From Pristiophorus japonicus (lineage: Eukaryota), in assembly GCF_044704955.1 (NCBI RefSeq), contig NC_091992.1, positions 22,506,001 to 22,570,000 on the forward strand: 64,000 nt of DNA. The letters run 5' to 3'. The position numbers and the translations under genes are program-made. Position 1 is the first letter of the stretch; each line of letters begins with the position of its first letter. Shown piece after piece: positions 38,846-62,258 of this stretch. The notes beneath the pieces are model-generated. The model searched no databases and was not told the origin of the DNA. It was given only the letters and a program-made list of their open reading frames with translations.

Positions 38846-40888
38846 TTTTTAAACATTTATTAAATCTCCTCTTAGCATTCACTGCTCCAGTGGAAACAGT
38901 CCCAGTATCTCAATTCTCTCCTCATAACTATAGTGTCTCATCTCTGGGATCATCCTTTCTATAATGAGGCACCCAAAACTATACACAGTAATTTAACTGT
39001 GGCCTAATCATTGTTTTGTAAATAGAAGTGGAGCTGAGCAAGAACCGTCTCCTGGAGGTAGATAATGGGGGCGAGAGTGTGCAGCATAGAGTGACTGACT
39101 GTGTTGAATGACATAGAGGGGTTGAGGAGGACAATATGGTTTATCATGTTTTAGTCACACGGAGAATTAATGCACTATTTACAGGACACTCTACCTTCTC
39201 AGAGCAACAAGGGATGAGCAATAAAAATGCAGATTTGCCAGTGTCACCCACATACTGGCATCAAATTTAAAAAAAAGAGTGAATGACCTATTCTAGTTCT
39301 AAGATTCTTATCGTCCACAGGAGTGAATACAAAGAACAAGTGAAGAATCACATACATATTAAAAGTTGGAAAGCGTAAGAGTTTGAACAATAATGAGAAA
39401 TAGAAATGTCTGATTTTGAAAATGATGAAGGAACATTATATATAATTTAAGCTGAATTGAATGAAATCTTAATATGAATATATTAAATTACAAGTACTGA
39501 AAGAATATTTTAAAAATTCTAATGAAAACATTGGTCAGTACACATTAGTGGGGTGTCATTTTGTGATTATGCAACTTGCATATTCTTTGCTGTGTGACTC
39601 ATAGCCTAATTTCACAAGCATTGTGAAATGAAAATCTAAGTAATTCAATGCAATGTACTGTACAGAGAAGTGGTTCGATCTGTGTTAGATTTCCCACACA
39701 ATGAGTTCACAATCTAGACTTCTCCATTGAGATTAGGCATTGAATGAGGCATAGACGTTTCTCTGCAGTGAAGAAGAAAAATATCAAAGGACAAGTCACC
39801 CTGTGCCATTAGTGACTGGCTCAAGTACAGAACTTGAAGCAGCTGGTCTCTCAGCTGGAAATACCGAGGGGGAAAAAACAGAATCTTTTTTTCTCCCATC
39901 ACTATTTCCAAACAATGCACGTGATTGTAAACTAATAGTTCCAACTTACGTGCTTCAGTGAACCTCAAATAGCCAGATATTGCTGCATGAATCCAAATCC
40001 AAACCTCTCATGCTGCACATTACTCTTCGGCCTTCTTTCATTTTGCCCCATTTTCAAAATGTTCGGTTTGGGTCTCTCTCTATTACCTGACATTCCTTTG
40101 ATGAGAGGCCAGGTGTAAAGCTCCTTCTGCCTTGCTAAACACCATACTAAAACTGGACATTAGGAAGTGCTGAGAATAGCCTTGTTTTCTTTTTGGTGTT
40201 TGTTCTCTTCCAGTGGTAGGTAGAGCACCAATTCTGTGTTTGCACCTCTTCCCAATAGGGTTATCCAACCTTGCAAGAGTGTCCTAAAGTCTCCAGGAAT
40301 TAAAGATTAAGTACCTGGCCACTGCTGTGAGCAACCCAGGAGAAAAGTCGTGGGAGCATTTAAAAATGCTTCTTTTTTTCATTTGCTTGGAATACTTTTA
40401 TTTATTAGTTCTAAAACGACTGGAGATGGTTAAAAAAAGGCTGTGATTTAGCAGGGCGGTTGGAGGTGGGAAACCTCCAGAAATTCATCCAACCCTACTT
40501 TCTGACAGCATATTTCAGAGCAAGAATTTGTCATATGGGGAAGAAAACATGTGAAACTGAAATAATGTGAAATCATCTACCAAGTGCACAATGAACAGTG
40601 TAATTCAGTGTGATTGTATTACATTAGTACCAAACATGTAGTATAACTTAGGCATCATTTGGAACAGGCAGATCTGCTGAAAAAAACTAAAGTGGGGAAA
40701 TTCAAGAAAGAAAAAGAACTAAATATAAAGGCAGTTGACCCAGATTCAGTAATAACTTCACAGCTCATCCCTAAAGCCCTTGACAGATATTACTCAAGAG
40801 TGGATTCCCAAGTTTAATTGGAAGAATGCCAGTAATTCTAAGCTTGGTTGTGCTTCACTGATCCTGAAATGTGTTTCCTTTATATTGA

Positions 40889-41074
40889 CAGAAAATGCTG
40901 GAAATCTCAGCGGGTCAGGCAGCATCTGTGGAGAGAGAAACAGATGACCCTTCATCATTGACCTGAAACGTTAACTCTGTTTCTCTCTCCACAGATGCTG
41001 CCTGACCCGCTGAGATTTCCAGCATTTTCTGTTTTTATTTCAGATTCCAGCATCCGCAGTATTTTGCTTTTGAG
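40889..41074. mobile_element. Foldback Penelope-like insert (57-bp perfect inverted repeat) with 13-bp TSD
   Basis: 40888-40944 is the exact reverse complement of 40976-41032; flanked by tcctttatattga at 40876-40888 and 41075-41087. Confidence 0.85.
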
Positions 41075-41314: not shown

Positions 41315-41855
41315 GAGGAGACACTTAGAGAGGGTACATAAAAGATTCACAAGAATGGTTCCAGGGATGAGGGACTTCAGTTATGTGGATAGACTGGGGA
41401 AGCAGGGTTTATTCTCCTTAAAGCAGAGAAGGTTGAGAGGAGATTTTATAGAGGTGTTCAAAATCATGAGGGGTCTAGACAGAGTAGAGAGAAAATGTTC
41501 CCTTAGCAGAAGTGTCGAGAACCAGAGGACTAAGATTTAAGGTAATTTGCAGAAGAACCAAAGGCAACATGAGGAAAAACCTTTTTACGCAGCGAGTGGT
41601 TAGGATCTGGAATGCACTGCCTGAGAGGGTAGTGGAGGCAGATTCAATCATGGCTTTCAAAAGCCGGGCGCCGCGAGCCGAGCCCCACAAGCAGCAGCCA
41701 GGGAGCATTGGATAAGTACCTGAAAGGAAAAAGAAAGTGTAGGGCTATGGGAAAAGGACGGGGGAGTGGGACAAGCTGAAGTGCTCTGGCAGGGAGCCAG
41801 CATTAGGCTTGATGGGCTGAATGGCCTCCTTCTGTGCTGTAACCATTCTATGATA
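41315..41855 (+). mobile_element. CR1 3' end carrying a 44-bp foreign insertion
   Basis: LERVHKRFTRMVPG...RVVRIWNALPERVVEADSIMAFK; same family as 3400-3991. Confidence 0.9.
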
Positions 41856-43139: not shown

Positions 43140-43480
43140 CAGGGGCAAAGGGAGCGTCTCCAGCCGCTTGATGGTCACAGTTCGAGGTCTTGGCGGGGCG
43201 GGCTGAGGCGGAGCAGTTGGCTCCGGCGGCGCGTGGCCGGCAGCTGCGCAGTGACGGACGCTCCCTGGCTGCTGCTGCTTGTGGGGCTCGGCTCGCGGCG
43301 CCCGGCGCGAGCACACGCACGCAGCGCCATTTTAACCGTCTCGGAGTCGCGCGGCGGTGGCAGAGCAGCAGCAGAAAGAGAGAGAGAGAGGCGATCGGGC
43401 TGTCAACGGCTGGATCACAGCAGCAACACCCACAAATAATGCACGCTCCTGCTCCTCTCGGTGAGTACCTCACGCCCGTT
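43140..43480 (+). promoter_or_regulatory. MYO18A: CpG-island promoter and probable non-coding exon 1 of MYO18A (donor after 43460)
   Basis: Unique CpG-dense island; GC box ggcggggcggg (about 43192); YY1-type cgccatttt (about 43326); strong donor CTCG|GTGAGT; lies 9.7 kb upstream of the MYO18A ATG exon. Confidence 0.75.
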
Positions 43481-49369: not shown

Positions 49370-50823
49370 TAGAAACATAGAAAATAGGTGCAGGAGCAGG
49401 CTATTCAGCCCTTCTAGCCAGCACCGCCATTCAATGAGTTCACGGCTGAACATGAAACTTCAGTACCCCCTTCCTGCTTTCACGCCATACCCCTTGATCC
49501 CCCGAGTAGTAAGGACTTCATCTAACTCACTTTTGAATATATTTAGTGAATTGGCCTCAACTACTTCCTGTGGTAGAGAATTCCACAGGTTCACCACTCT
49601 CGGTGAAGAAGTTTCTCCTTATCTCGGTCCTAAATGGCTTACCCCTTATCCTTAGACTGTGACCCCTGGTTCTGGACTTCCCCAACATTGGGAACATTCT
49701 TCCTGCATCCAACCTGTCCAAACCCGTCAGAATTTTAAACGTTTCTATGAGGTCCCCTCTCACTCTTCTGAACTCCAGTGAATACAAGCCCAGTTGATCC
49801 AGTCTTTCTTGATAGGTCAGTCCCACCATCCCGGGAATCAGTCTGGTGAATCTTCGCTGCACTCCCTCAATAGCAAGAATGTCCTTCCTCAAGTTAGGAG
49901 ACCAAAACTGTACACAATACTCCAGGTGTGGCCTCACCAAGGCCCTGTACAACTGTAGCAACACCTCCCTGCCCCTGTACTCAAATCCCCTCGCTATGAA
50001 GGCCAACATGCCATTTGCTTTCTTAACCGCCTGCTGTACCTGCATGCCAACCTTCAATGACTGATGTACCATGACACCCAGGTCTCGTTGCACCTTCCCT
50101 TTTCCTAATCTGTCACCATTCAGATAATAGTCTGTCTCTCTGTTTTTACCACCAAAGTGGATAACCTCACATTTATCCACATTATACTTCATCTGCCATT
50201 CATTTGCCCACTCATCTAACCTATCCAAGTCACTCTGTAGCCTCATAGCATCCTCCTCGCAGCTCACACTGCCACCCAACTTAGTGTCATCCGCAAATTT
50301 GGAGATACTACATTTAATCCCCTCGTCTAAATCATTAATGTACAATGTAAACAGCTGGGGCCCCAGCACAGAACCCTGCGGTACCCCACTAGTCACTGCC
50401 TGCCATTCTGAAAAGTACCCATTTACTCCTACTCTTTGCTTCCTGTCTGACAACCAGTTCTCAATCCACGTCAGCACACTACCCCCAATCCCATGTGCTT
50501 TAACTTTGCACATTAATCTCCTGTGTGGGACCTTGTCGAAAGCTTTCTGAAAGTCCAAATATATCACATCAACTGGTACTCCTTTGTCCACTTTATTGGA
50601 AACATCCTCAAAAAATTCCAGAAGATTTGTCAAGCATGATCTCCCTTTCACAAATCCATGCTGACTTGGACCTATCATGTCACCATTTTCCAAATGCGCT
50701 GCTATGACATCCTTAATAATTGATTCCATCATTTTACCCACTACTGAGGTCAGGCTGACCGGTCTATAATTCCCTGCTTTCTCTCTCCCTTTTTTTAAAA
50801 AGTGGGGTTACATTGGCTACCCT
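49370..50823 (-). mobile_element. Young 5'-truncated CR1 with a 394-aa uninterrupted RT ORF fragment (49557-50741)
   Basis: [45 protein letters not shown]; tagaaacatagaaa tail. Confidence 0.95.
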
Positions 50824-53267: not shown

Positions 53268-54278
53268 ATGTTTAACTTAATCAAAAAAGACAAAGATAAA
53301 AAGGAGAAGAAAGAAAAGAAGGAAAAGCGGGAGAAAATGTCTGTAGCAGAATTGAAAAGTCTCGAGGAAGTTGGTCTTCGTCGTGGGCTCTTCAGTTTGA
53401 ATCGATCTTCAAAGCGGGAATCAAAGGCGAAACTGGAAATTTCAGCCCCTATCCCAATAAAAGTAGCTAGTAGTTCGGATCTCAATCTTACTGATATTGA
53501 TTCAGACACTATTAGTAACAGAGGAAGCATGATTTTTGATTCTGAGCAGTTGAGTACTGCCAGTTCCAGTGATGACCTCAAAATAGATGAGTGTAGTTTG
53601 AAGGGATCAGTACTTCAGCGCGCAGCTCTGTTTGGCTCTCTTGCTAAACAGAATTCAGTCCAACTCGTAAAGAGGTTCTCTTTTTCACAAAAGAGTCGAG
53701 AAGAGACAACATCAGAAGTGTCGACTCCATCAGAAAATTCTGCAACTCCTTCACCACAGGTAGAAATGAGAAATGAAGGCCTACTACTTGAGTACCTAGA
53801 AGAAGTGCCAATAAATGTGTCCAATACAGTGTTAATGGCAACTCCTGATATTCAGATTCCAGAAGTTGTGGATAAAAGTTTTGTTGCTGATCTACGGCTT
53901 CCTCCTATGGTACCACCTTTGCCTACAGAACCTAGAGAGCTTGTATTGCAGAGAAGAAATACAGGAGACTTTGGGTTCTCTTTACGGAGAACAACCATGC
54001 TGGACAGAGGACCTGATGGACAAGTATACCGCAGGATGGTTCATTTTGCAGAGCCTGGGGCTGGTACTAAAGATTTAGCATTGGGTCTGGTGCCAGGCGA
54101 CAGACTGGTGGAAATTAACAGTAAGAATGTTGAAAATAAATCACGGGACGAGATAGTTGAGATGATCCGTCAATCTGGGGACACCGTGAGATTGAAAGTG
54201 CAGCCAATCCTTGAGTTGAGTGAGCTCAGCAGATCTTGGTTGAGAAACCATACAGGGATTCGCAGAGATGCTTTTGGC
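53268..54278 (+). CDS. MYO18A: Unconventional myosin-XVIIIa, first coding exon (KE-rich region + PDZ domain, alpha isoform); gene continues beyond the window
   Basis: [18 protein letters not shown]..., [13 protein letters not shown], and PDZ segment [19 protein letters not shown]...[11 protein letters not shown]...LKVQPI match MYO18A. Acceptor ttcag ends at 53125; donor GGC|GTAAGT after 54278 (337 codons, phase 0). Confidence 0.96.
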
Positions 54279-56747
54279 GTAAGTACTAAAAAAAAAAAAA
54301 AAATTTTAACTCTTGATTTTATCTAGTCTTCAGCTTTGAAACTGTAGTCTTGTTGTAGCTCCAAACCACTGGAGGGAATTCTGCTTTTCAGATGTTATCG
54401 AGTCGAAGGTCCTGCTAAATGAGAATTCTGAGATCTTTATCTAGCAAGAATCCGACATCCCACAATTGAGAAACCGGTTTACTTATTACTGAACCGCAAT
54501 CTTTTAAGATTTCTTTGTGTGTAGTGGGATTATATATCGATGGTATAAAGCATTTTTGGGAGTATGGATCTTGGAGATTGTATTTAAGTGGTTTCTATAA
54601 TCACAATTGTACATGTTAAAATGATGTGATACCTCAAGCTGTTATACCCTCGGGAGCTTAATTGGCAAACTCAATTTTTCTTTTGTTCTGGTTGTCAATA
54701 ATTATAATTAGTGACAAACTAGTACATAGCTTAAATGCAAACCCCATTTTTTCTAACACTGGAGTGCTTCATAGTATTTGCATAGATCTGTGTTCCTTTT
54801 CAACCAACCTCTATTAATATTAGCATTACTGAATAATGCAAGATTTATGAAAATGCAGCAAAATAATTGTTTTGGCACATTAAGTAGAATTTTATATTTA
54901 ACTTTGACGCAGCTCTGTGTTGTCATCTGTAAAATTCCATGTCTTTTCATGTTGTGCTGTGTTTAATGGTTCACCTTGCTTTAGGGATGTGAAACAGGGG
55001 GTGTGAAATTGGTCTTGGTCAGTAGCGCGGTGACAGTGAATAGGCAGCCCGTTTTACATAGTACCCGATTTTCTTATCCATTTAATTTCAATGGAAAAGA
55101 AATTTGGGCTAAAGTACACAATTTCAGGTTTATTGAATAGGGTACTTCTGAATTATGCGTGTGTGTGTAGTTTTTTGTGTTTTTATTTTTGGCTGTACTG
55201 TGGCTTTTACCTGTAGCCATTGTTGCAATCATGATGGAGAAAAGTGCTGTACTTCACTGGTTAACTATGAATTTCAATGCCAAAACATATGATGGGGGTT
55301 CCTGTGTATTTGCATCCAGAGATGCAAGTAATTGGGGTGTTAGGCAAATATCCGGCATAAAAGGTCAAAGAAACTCGGGTGCACGTAATTACTCTGCACC
55401 TGAATTTCCTCATTTCTTTTACGCTCGTTTGCTCCTTGCACCTGAATACATTTCAGCTCATTATAATGGTACCCCCTCCCCGGCTTAAGAGCTGTACTCG
55501 CAAATTTCCTGCACTGATCCTGGTTCAAAGCAGGTGCAAAATAAAGCCCAGAATTTTAGACGCAGCAAACAACAAAGTAATTTTTCCAGTGTTTCATTAC
55601 GATTTAATTTTTTTTTCTGAGTAATTAATTTAAAAAGAAAATATCCTCAGACCTGCACTTTTGCCCCTATTTCTCAATGCACTTAATGGCCTCAGTATAA
55701 GCTACATTAACAATTGAAATGCTTTCGTGATTGCACGCCGTTGAATTTCCTCAGATTTTTGTGTTTCTGTCCAGACATGTGTAATCTGGGCGCAAACCAA
55801 ATACATGGCTTAAAAGATTGCGGGATTTTGGGTGTAAATGAGTTACGCGTATAACTACAATACGACGAAATTGCTTTGATCTTTACAGCTGTCCATTGAT
55901 TTCTCCGCCCAAGCACACCCCAATTGCGCTTATTCAGAGGCTTTCTTAAAATTACGACTAGATTTAGGGAACAGTCATTTTTCTGGTGTTTTATTGAAAT
56001 GTTTTGAATGCTTTTTTAAAATGTATCCTCACTTCAGTTAGGTAATGTTAAAAATTGTAAAGTTTGCCCCGATTGCAGGTTCCTAAACATGCTATACCTA
56101 ATGTGCATGAATGATGGTTAAATGAAACTACATTCGGGCGTATTCTATTGAGATTGTCAGGAGATTCACTCGTGATATGATAGTGGCAGAATGGGCACGA
56201 GAATGGGGCATTTTTGGGCCAAACTTCCAGGTTGCACCAATGGAGAAAATTTCAGGCCAACATATTGTGCATGAATGATGGTTAGATGGCTTGAAACTTT
56301 AATTTTCATACTTAAAGAAGGAATATATGGTGTGAGTTTAGCTCTTTCCTCAAGGCCTGGATTCTTTACTTTGATTAAAGCTTTGTTTACGCCCATTTTT
56401 ATGTTCCCTTATATGTTAATGAGATTAGCAGAAAATTTGGGTGTAAGTAGACATTGGCAAAATTGGCGCATGAATGGATGCAATTTCAGGTATAATTTCT
56501 CAATTATGTCCCCACAGAAAATTCCATTCCTATATGACCAATGTGATTATATAACCAGCATGTTTGTTCCCTCTCTTTTTCTAATACATAAAATATCAAA
56601 AGAATAAATATAACTAAAGGTATATTTACAAATCAAGTAGTGCACAAGTTTATTTTATTATGTATAGTATTTGTGGGAAAATTCATGTACAGAATTTGTG
56701 GGTAAATGCATTAGACATGTAAAGGGATGTTGCTACCTTCTGCACAG

Positions 56748-58924: not shown

Positions 58925-59400
58925 GGGCCCAAGTTTCGGGCCGCGCCTAGAACGGCACAGCCCCGACCTGGATGCCCATTTTTCGCGCCACGAAGTGTGT
59001 CTAAAAAAAACTTAGAGATTCTCCGGCTCTCTGCTGGTCCTCTGGATCTGGGCGCGGCGCAGCACGAGCTGCAGGGGGTGGAGCCAGGTCCCTGCGCTGA
59101 AAACAGTGCCGGGACTTCTGCACATGCGCGCTACAGTAGGCGCACATGTGCAGTAGCTCCAGGCGCCCAAAACTGTGTGGGAGGAGCCCGAAGCACGCAG
59201 CCTCTAGCCCTGGCCGAATGGCCTCACAGGGGCTGCATGCATAAGGCTGTTTCCTTCCGACCCGACTCGACCCCGCCTGACCCGACCCTTGCTTCCGACC
59301 CCGGACCTGACCCGACTCAACGCCATCGACCTGTAAATCTGGTGCTGGGGACGGGCCCTGCCCGAAGTCTTGGGCCCGGCCTGTTCAGCCCCCCTTCAAC

Positions 59401-59451
<51 letters not shown>

Positions 59452-62258
59452 TCTTTTCCCCCCCCCCCACTTCTCCTTCTTCCCCCCCCCCCCACTTCTC
59501 CTTCTTCCCCCCCCCACTTCTCCTTCTTCCCCCCCCCCCACTTCTCCTTCTTCCCCCCCCACTTCTCCTTCTTCCCCCCCCACTTCTCCTTCTTCCCCCC
59601 CCACTTTTCCTTCTTCCCCCCCCACTTCTCCTTCTTCCCCCCCCCACTTCTCTTCTTCCCCCCCCCACTTCTCCTTCTTCCCCCCCCACTTCTCCTTCTT
59701 CCCCCCCCACTTCTCCTTCTTCCCCCCCACTTCTCCTTCTTCCCCCCCCACTTCTCCTTCTTCCCCCCCCACTTCTCCTTCTTCCCCCCCCACTTCTCCT
59801 TCTTCCCCCCCCACTTCTCCTTCTTCCCCCCCCACTTCTCCTTCTTCCCCCCCCACTTCTCCTTCTTCCCCCCCCACTTCTCCTTCTTCCCCCCCCACTT
59901 CTCCTTCTTCCCCCCCCACTTCTCCTTCTTCCCCCCCCACTTCTCCTTCTTCCCCCCCCACTTCTCCTTCTTCCCCCCCCACTTCTCCTTCTTCCCCCCC
60001 CACTTCTCCTTCTTCCCCCCCCACTTCTCCTTCTTCCCCCCCCACTTCTCCTTCTTCCCCCCCCACTTCTCCTTCTTCCCCCCCCACTTCTCCTTCTTCC
60101 CCCCCCACTTCTCCTTCTTCCCCCCCCACTTCTCCTTCTTCCCCCCCCACTTCTCCTTCTTCCCCCCCCACTTCTCCTTCTTCCCCCCCCACTTCTCCTT
60201 CTTCCCCCCCCACTTCTCCTTCTTCCCCCCCCACTTCTCCTTCTTCCCCCCCCCACTTCTCCTTCTTCCCCCCCCACTTCTCCTTCTTCCCCCCCACTTC
60301 TCCTTCTTCCCCCCCCACTTCTCCTTCTTCCCCCCCCACTTCTCCTTCTTCCCCCCCCACTTCTCCTTCTTCCCCCCCCACTTCTCCTTCTTCCCCCCCA
60401 CTTCTCCTTCTTCCCCCCCCACAATACTATCTCTTTTGATCTCTCTTCCCCCCCCACTTCTCCTTCTTCCCCCCCCAAACTTCTCCTATGATCTCTTCCC
60501 CCCCCACTTCTCCTTCTTCCCCCCCCACTTCTCCTTCTTCCCCCCCCACNNNNNNNNNNNNNNNNNNNNNNNNNNNNNNNNNNNNNNNNNNNNNNNNNNN
60601 NNNNNNNNNNNNNNNNNNNNNNNNNNNNNNNNNNNNNNNNNNNNNNNNNNNNNNNNNNNNNNNNNNNNNNNNNNNNNNNNNNNNNNNNNNNNNNNNNNNN
60701 NNNNNNNNNNNNNNNNNNNNNNNNNNNNNNNNNNNNNNNNNNNNNNNNNCCGCCCCCCTCACTTCTTCCCTCCCCCCCCACTTCCTTCTTCCCCCCCCCC
60801 ACTTCTCCTTCTTCCCCCCCCACTTCTCCTTCGTCCCCCCCCACTTCTCCGTCTTCCCCCCCCACTTCTCCTTCGCCCCCACTTCTCCTTCCCCCCCACT
60901 TCTCCTTCTTCCCCCCCCACTTCTCCTTCTTCCCCCCCCACTTCTCCTTCTTCCCCCCCCCACTTCTCCTTCTTCCCCCCCCCACTTCTCCTTCCTTCCC
61001 CCCCACTTCTCCTTCTTCCCCCCCCCCCATTCTCCTCCTTCACCCCCCCACTTCTCCTTCTCCTCCTTCACCCCCCACTTCTCCTTCTCCTCCTTCACCC
61101 CCCACTTCTCCTTCTCCTCCTTCACCCCCCACTTCTCCTTCTCCTCCTTCACCCCCCCACTTCTCCTTCTCCTCCTTCACCCCCCACTTCTCCTTCTCCT
61201 CCTTCACCCCCCACTTCTCCTTCTCCTCCTTCACCCCCCCACTTCTCCTTCTCCTCCTTCACCCCCCCACTTCTCCTTCTCCTCCTTCACCCCCCACTTC
61301 TCCTTCTCCTCCTTCACCCCCCCACTTCTCCTTCTCCTCCATCACCCCCCCACTTCTCCTTCTCCTCCTTCACCCCCCCACTTCTCCTTCTCCTCCTTCA
61401 CCCCCCCACTTCTCCTTCTCCTCCTCCTCCTTCACCCCCCCACTTCTCCTTCTCCTCCTTCACCCCCCCACTTCTCCTTCTCCTCCTCCTTCACCCCCCC
61501 ACTTCTCCTTCTCCTCCTCCTTCACCCCCCCACTTCTCCTTCTCCTCCTTCACCCCCCCACTTCTCCTTCTCCTCCTNNNNNNNNNNNNNNNNNNNNNNN
61601 NNNNNNNNNNNNNNNNNNNNNNNNNNNNNNNNNNNNNNNNNNNNNNNNNNNNNNNNNNNNNNNNNNNNNNNNNNNNNNNNNNNNNNNNNNNNNNNNNNNN
61701 NNNNNNNNNNNNNNNNNNNNNNNNNNNNNNNNNNNCCTTCTCCTCCTCCTTCACCCCCCCCACTTTTCCTTCTCCTCCTCCTTCACCCCCCCACTTTTCC
61801 TTCTCCTCCTCCTTCACCCCCCCACTTCTCCTTCTCCTCCTCCTTCACCCCCCCATTTCTCCTTCTCCTCCTCCTTCACCCCCCCCACTTCTCCTTCTCC
61901 TCCTCCTTCACCCCCCCCCACTTCTCCTTCTCCTTCACCCCCCCCACTTCTCCTTCTCCTTCTCCTTCACCCCCCCCCACTTCCTCCCCCTCGTTGTCAG
62001 AAACGCAGACACACTGTGGGGAGCTTTTTTCGAGCGAACAAAAATCTTCACTTACTCCACTCTAAGTTAGTTTGGAGTAAGTTTTCACTGCCAAAACTTT
62101 CAAAACGGGCGTAAAAAAAATTCTGTTCCAAAGTGAAACTGTTCTAACTGACTAGAACTGGAGCAAACTAAATGCCGAGAATTTGAATTTCTAAAATACT
62201 CCATTCTACACCAGTTGCTCCAAAAAATCAGGAGCAACTGAGGCCGAAACTTGGGCCC
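58925..62258. mobile_element. Harbinger-type non-autonomous element containing an expanded polypyrimidine satellite
   Basis: 15-bp perfect TIRs GGGCCCAAGTTTCGG / CCGAAACTTGGGCCC; 3-bp TSD AAT (58922-58924 and 62259-62261). Confidence 0.9.
59404..61990. repeat. (CT)n followed by a 21-bp minisatellite CACTTCTCCTTCTTCCCCCCC, grading into ~27-31-bp units; two N gaps (60550-60750 and 61578-61735)
   Basis: Directly visible tandem units. Confidence 0.97.

Follow-up and report, generated by a model that had tools for sequence, protein, structure and literature searches.

A short inverted copy of DNA from a neighbouring putative promoter within a CR1-like fragment of Pristiophorus japonicus: a probable scar of local template switching

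Short inverted copies of nearby DNA have been described in several systems. In human germline structural variants, stretches of less than 1 kb are inserted in inverted orientation within 5 kb of their template, which is ascribed to template switching (Sudmant et al. 2015, PMC4617611), and the part of that report on complex deletions lists 871 sites with a local template and 17 with an RNA template. The insertions designated MMB-TI (Osia et al. 2021, PMC8421209) are likewise germline inverted templated insertions, of at least 25 nt, for which interrupted microhomology ("microhomeology") is described; the search setting used in that study limits the templates to those within 100 bp. The templated insertions of polymerase theta (TINS) measure 3-30 bp, with tracts rarely longer than 10 bp, and are AT-rich and derived from flanking DNA, with distal templates in less than 0.1% of repair (Carvajal-Garcia et al. 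2020, PMC7165422). In the inverse-repeat class of TINS, priming is intramolecular and the first alignment often has less than 3 bp of microhomology or none. In four-point template switches (Loytynoja and Goldman 2017, PMC5453318; Walker et al. 2021, PMC7954356), described in these sources as short-range, synthesis switches to the opposite strand, copies in reverse and switches back, which leaves an inverted copy. Class 2 TSIP (Onozawa and Aplan 2016, PMC5110952) carry a microdeletion and lack both a target-site duplication and poly(A); their donors are described as distant, and RNA is the proposed template. A literature search for templated insertions in shark genomes, judged by titles and the opening of abstracts, found none.

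The window analysed here is a stretch of 64,000 nt of the P. japonicus genome (contig NC_091992.1). Positions 41663-41706, on the minus strand, are an inverted copy of positions 43260-43306 on the plus strand, which lie in a CpG island at a likely promoter and first exon. The inverted arms are 100% identical over 36 nt (41663-41698 and 43271-43306) and over 17 nt (41690-41706 and 43260-43276), and a gapped alignment matches 44 of 47 positions, with one CAG absent from the insert, as the original prediction had stated. The insert is 44 nt long with a GC content of 80%, and the donor is downstream of it at a distance of 1.55 kb (about 1.6 kb; 1572 nt as the spacing is counted in the survey described below). 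The number of genomic copies was determined with the 36-nt exact part of the insert, which has one forward and one reverse match in the 5.92-Gb assembly, compared with 0 for a reversed-sequence control; the expectation that only two places would be found, the insert and the donor, is thus confirmed. A dispersed repeat as the origin of the insert is ruled out by these two genomic copies of the 36-mer. An inverted copy, a single template within 5-10 kb and an intact template, which define a local inverted duplication, are all found here. The insert is real and locally templated, with a single donor.

The insert splits the 3' end of a 5'-truncated LINE (approximately 41324-41854, plus strand), a CR1-like element according to the original prediction, whose family name fits the tail motif. 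A genome search for sibling copies returned 3913 candidates, of which the best 40 were scored and 30 were fetched, leaving 29 besides the host. The insert is present in none of these 29 copies from among the best 40 of 3913, and all 29 hold 4 nt at the site, which indicates that the insert-bearing state is derived. The 4 nt read GGGA in 20 of the 29, in agreement with the earlier statement that the insert replaces the ggga of the element, and the possibility raised with it, that the 44-mer belongs to many CR1 copies, is contradicted by its absence from all 29 siblings and by the two genome matches. A 4-nt gap also separates 15 of the 19 flank pairs matched in other CR1 copies of the survey sample. 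The host bases replaced number 4, or 3 if the first G of the insert is counted as the host's. The insert is accompanied by no target-site duplication and no poly(A), and it contains no splice junction.

At the true junctions, the host shares 1 nt (G) with the donor on the left and 0 nt on the right. The AGGGA match to the empty site, which had been read as junction microhomology, sits 2 nt inside the insert and is followed by a donor-derived GC; it therefore counts as microhomology only with a retained 2-nt GC bulge. Among CpG-island windows, 10 of 276 (3.6%) contain a 5-nt match to the site no more than 2 nt from one of the ends, as do 1325 of 19,936 local windows (6.6%). With a chance occurrence in 4-7% of windows, the offset match is suggestive at most as microhomology, and that element of the original prediction is weaker than it was put there.

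A comparison with the described systems places the insert in a common known class, of which the human "Inverted Dup" is the closest form. It resembles the "Inverted Dup" and "Ins with Dup and Del" variants (PMC4617611) in that a short inverted copy lies less than 5 kb from its template and bases are lost at the site. It differs from the "Inverted Dup" of the same source in its smaller size (44 nt), in its near lack of microhomology and in the means of detection, which was the empty repeat siblings here and population genotyping there. The donor at 1.55 kb places the insert outside the MMB-TI definition, whose 100-bp limit is a search setting (PMC8421209). With 44 nt, 80% GC and a donor 1.55 kb away, the insert also departs from canonical TINS as characterised in PMC7165422, and the polymerase-theta label applied earlier fits poorly on the same grounds, although the insert is comparable with the inverse-repeat class in its minimal first alignment. 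The strand switch, reverse copying and return are those of the four-point template switches, whereas the jump here is on a kilobase scale (PMC5453318, PMC7954356). The microdeletion and the lack of a target-site duplication and poly(A) are shared with Class 2 TSIP, whose donors are distant, unlike the local donor here (PMC5110952). The loss of 4 nt, together with the same two absences, does not agree with Class 1 TSIP or LINE-mediated insertion.

Like events were searched for in 1.8 Mb of the assembly, taken as six blocks (1.864 Mb including the window). The survey started from 9015 runs of 18-mers that occur twice, of which 4728 were 25-250 nt long and not of low complexity, and filters for rarity and identity left 506 pairs. 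The empty-site test flagged 12 of the surveyed pairs, among which 41663-41706 is the only clean local inverted one. Among the 506 pairs, 27 were at least 30 nt long with at least 98% identity; 23 of these run into longer repeats and four are sharp-ended. All four sharp-ended pairs are inverted, with spacings of 415, 959, 1097 and 1572 nt, and one of them is the 41663-41706 event. The inverted bin of 0.3-2 kb represents 0.18% of the pair opportunity, yet it holds all four.

The other three sharp-ended pairs are perfect inverted copies of 91 nt (L045, 3630-3720 and 4136-4226), 68 nt (L156, 2912-2979 and 3939-4006) and 65 nt (L185, 4003-4067 and 5165-5229), each 100% identical. The copies lie 0.4-1.1 kb from donors that are not promoters, and each adjoins a repeat; microhomology at the far junction amounts to 5, 5 and 7 nt, respectively. 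In two of the three, the repeat breaks off in mid-element and does not resume, so that a deletion probably accompanied the event. The third copy begins where its repeat ends naturally and includes a truncated portion of the repeat that neighbours the donor. The three pairs were also considered as terminal inverted repeats of DNA transposons and were rejected as such: no target-site duplication is evident, and for each pair the 39 other matches among the best 40 cover the flanking repeat only, ending 5-14 nt into the arm.

A second survey, looser and masked, reduced 2320 matches to 92, then 35 and finally 25 pairs; the masking caused it to miss the 41663-41706 and L045 events. Its sharp pairs within 10 kb comprise seven inverted and nine direct pairs, which indicates that the inverted orientation is not exclusive. 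The empty-site check covered inverted pairs only, five of them, and confirmed two; the resulting tally of six inverted events among six is accordingly not used as a test of orientation. These two are older inserts, both inverted and within repeats that have clear empty sites: one of 91 nt and 90% identity (C16, about 22,920,403-22,920,493) replaces 16 nt in a repeat and has its donor 1.1 kb away, and one of about 110-128 nt and 88% identity (C8, about 90,029,475-90,029,602) replaces up to about 20 nt and has its donor 4.0 kb away. The three sibling donors that were measured, with a GC content of 0.34-0.44, did not qualify as islands in the test applied; one sibling donor has a CpG observed/expected ratio of 0.09 and spans a repeat boundary. 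Island-like donors number one in six, against 85 of 18,622 windows, a ratio that carries no evidence because the 41663-41706 event was picked for its promoter.

Locally templated inverted inserts of differing age thus recur in this genome. From the three perfect events that were not preselected, a frequency of approximately 0.3-4.7 per Mb is estimated for the 1.864 Mb (95% Poisson interval), which would correspond to some thousands to tens of thousands of events in the whole genome. The single event, a clean and datable scar beside a promoter, is of little weight; the survey is more useful in that dense repeat families supply an empty-site control for each event, so that the donor spacing, the orientation and the kind of template of such mutations could be measured in a slowly sampled vertebrate lineage.

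The insert is most probably the scar of a switch between DNA templates, triggered by a break or by a stalled fork. The event would have been a single one in the germline: synthesis from a DNA end that had broken or stalled within the old CR1 fragment would have moved to the other strand and continued there for about 45 nt before the ends were rejoined, with 3-4 nt lost. One route is a move of the left 3' end onto the top strand 1.55 kb ahead, in the manner of FoSTeS/MMBIR; the other is a fold-back on itself of the right end after resection. Both routes give an inverted copy and are compatible with the far-junction microhomology of the siblings. The sequence does not separate them, and we lean only slightly to the FoSTeS/MMBIR type. 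The CAG unit would have been lost by slippage, during or after the copying. The promoter is likely to have been merely the DNA within reach. Of the mechanism proposed in the original prediction, the local template and the recent date are retained, as is the view that the insert is neither an artefact nor part of a dispersed repeat, whereas the RNA-templated patch offered there as an option is not needed. Some observations weigh against a DNA template switch. The junctions have 1 and 0 nt of microhomology, unlike the 5-7 nt in the three perfect siblings. Furthermore, the donor approximates the variable spacer of the promoter, with its end at 43260 in the range of possible transcription starts, as would follow directly if the template had been RNA.

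The CpG island that holds the donor has 27 CpG in 43201-43400, with an observed/expected ratio of 1.08. Two conserved blocks on the plus strand flank the donor: the upstream block (43222-43254) was not copied, and the downstream block (43303-43352) overlaps the donor by its first 4 nt only. The upstream block contains the motifs CAGCTG at 43241, TGCGCA at 43245 and TGACG at 43252, the first of which is an E-box; the downstream block contains CGCCATTTT at 43325, presumably a YY1-like motif. A GC box is present at 43195, about 60 nt upstream of 43260. None of these five motifs (GC box, E-box, TGCGCA, TGACG and YY1-like) occurs in the insert, and the claim that the insertion duplicates GC-rich sites is therefore overstated. 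A GTGAGT splice-donor-like site (43461-43466, plus strand) probably closes a first exon. A large coding exon on the plus strand (53268-54281) begins with a KE-rich segment and encodes a PDZ domain; a PDB search returned general PDZ proteins only. Motifs of a myosin motor lie approximately 140-170 kb downstream of that exon on the same strand, at window-relative positions of 191.5, 193.1 and 224.8 kb. The order of KE-rich segment, PDZ domain and motor fits the architecture of MYO18A.

Relative to this species, promoter contigs of two other organisms, B and C, show 12 differing letters (5 substitutions and 7 gap letters) and 20 differing letters (13 substitutions and 7 gap letters), respectively. 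All of these differences lie within 43255-43302, and none is found in 43222-43254 or 43303-43352. The donor thus has the lowest conservation within the promoter and is a variable spacer between two conserved motif blocks. The 48-nt spacer itself, with invariant blocks on either side, nearly coincides with the copied stretch. The geometry of the motifs allows a transcription start at about 43255-43315.

That the template was RNA is improbable, although this alternative survives better than the others. The left end would have been primed on the sense transcript at 43306, copied to the 5' end of the RNA near 43260 and joined bluntly. The polarity is right, in that a primer at the left end can be extended only along the top (sense) strand, and run-off would account for the 0 nt of microhomology at the right junction. 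RNA-derived patches have been described, but those in PMC5110952 derive from distant loci, and local templates far outnumber RNA-derived ones in the human data cited above (871 and 17; PMC4617611). YY1 sites favour a position immediately downstream of the transcription start (PMC11269187); whereas the GC box at its distance of about 60 nt suits a start at 43260, the YY1-like site at 43325 would imply starts nearer 43300-43315, with most of the donor untranscribed. The insert has neither a splice junction nor poly(A). Additionally, the five like events have donors outside the CpG-island-promoter class, two measured donors being below the GC thresholds used, which indicates that an RNA template is not needed. 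We consider it quite unlikely that the insert is a germline-fixed cis cDNA patch from the transcript of the neighbouring gene, with run-off at a cap at 43260 and a start site recorded in the end of the insert. If an RNA template were correct, the locus would represent an uncommon natural example of a break repaired in cis from an RNA template and then fixed in the germline.

The age of the insert bears on a further alternative. Compared with the majority letters of the family, the host CR1 differs at 34 of 483 positions (7%), or at 29 of 463 non-CpG positions (6.3%), and it keeps 4 of 10 family CpG sites, whereas the insert has 0 substitutions and keeps 5 of 5 CpG. The joint chance of this if the insert were as old as the host is 0.001 (for CpG alone, Fisher p = 0.042). 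The insert is younger than the host CR1, and the earlier observation that all of its CpGs are intact and that it is recent holds. Additionally, the insert carries this species' version of the promoter and not that of B or C, and so probably postdates the splits from both organisms. A jump of the CR1 reverse transcriptase to local DNA or RNA and back during integration of the host is therefore rejected as highly improbable: the insert does lie within the 3' end of a LINE, with CR1 sequence on both sides, but it would then be as old as its host, and neither a target-site duplication nor poly(A) accompanies it. Insert-bearing contigs were not found in the runs of organisms B, C and F, where absence from contigs does not show absence from the genome; B and C have donor orthologues, and no promoter orthologue was found in the contigs of F.

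Short reads were available from runs X1 and X3, which come from one sample (S1), the sole sample of the species with useful depth and possibly the source of the assembly; runs X5 and X7, from other individuals, have no depth on unique DNA. Five X3 contigs fall on the promoter: two promoter pieces (depths of 15.6 and 17), the shared 36-mer (depth 42) and two junction pieces. The left-junction contig has 27 loose CR1 letters behind 43306 (depth 24), and the right-junction contig has 64 loose CR1 letters before 43260 and leaves out the 3 letters CAG (depth 17.6). Contigs of both X1 and X3 hold 41669-41770, across the right junction. The junction depth is similar to the promoter depth, which fits an insert on both haplotypes of S1. 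At 41725, 19 nt from the insert, the short-read contigs read G and the assembly reads A, which may reflect a second haplotype that also bears the insert or an error in the assembly.

The apparent presence on both haplotypes, with S1 differing from the assembly at nearby 41725, could suggest that the insert was kept for a function, either as an additional regulatory element or to pair with the promoter, and the arms of insert and donor have a predicted duplex energy of -71 kcal/mol if single-stranded. A spacer of 1.55 kb between the arms makes cruciform extrusion unlikely. The upstream arm would be outside the mRNA, the insert derives from the promoter stretch with the lowest conservation and has none of the motifs checked, and like events are common; a function is thus very doubtful, and the insert, which bears no sign of one, is likely to be neutral. 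An artefact of assembly or polishing, the least credible reading, is rejected: the possibility that reads lack the insert had been raised, and although S1 may be the assembly's own source, so that the short reads exclude an assembly artefact without serving as a population test, both junctions and the missing CAG appear in separately assembled short-read contigs, which also carry a differing base at 41725.

Other features of the window were observed. Positions 40888-41032 form a perfect inverted repeat of 57 nt with a 31-nt loop and fully matched arms; 14 matches in the survey sample, itself included, span both arms, and the hairpin-shaped relatives elsewhere indicate that the inverted repeat is a feature of a repeat family. 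A long, strongly skewed pyrimidine-rich tandem array with two N stretches occupies 59300-62100 in an intron. In the first intron, an open frame of 416 aa on the minus strand (49557-50807) appears by eye to be a fragment of a CR1/L2 reverse transcriptase.
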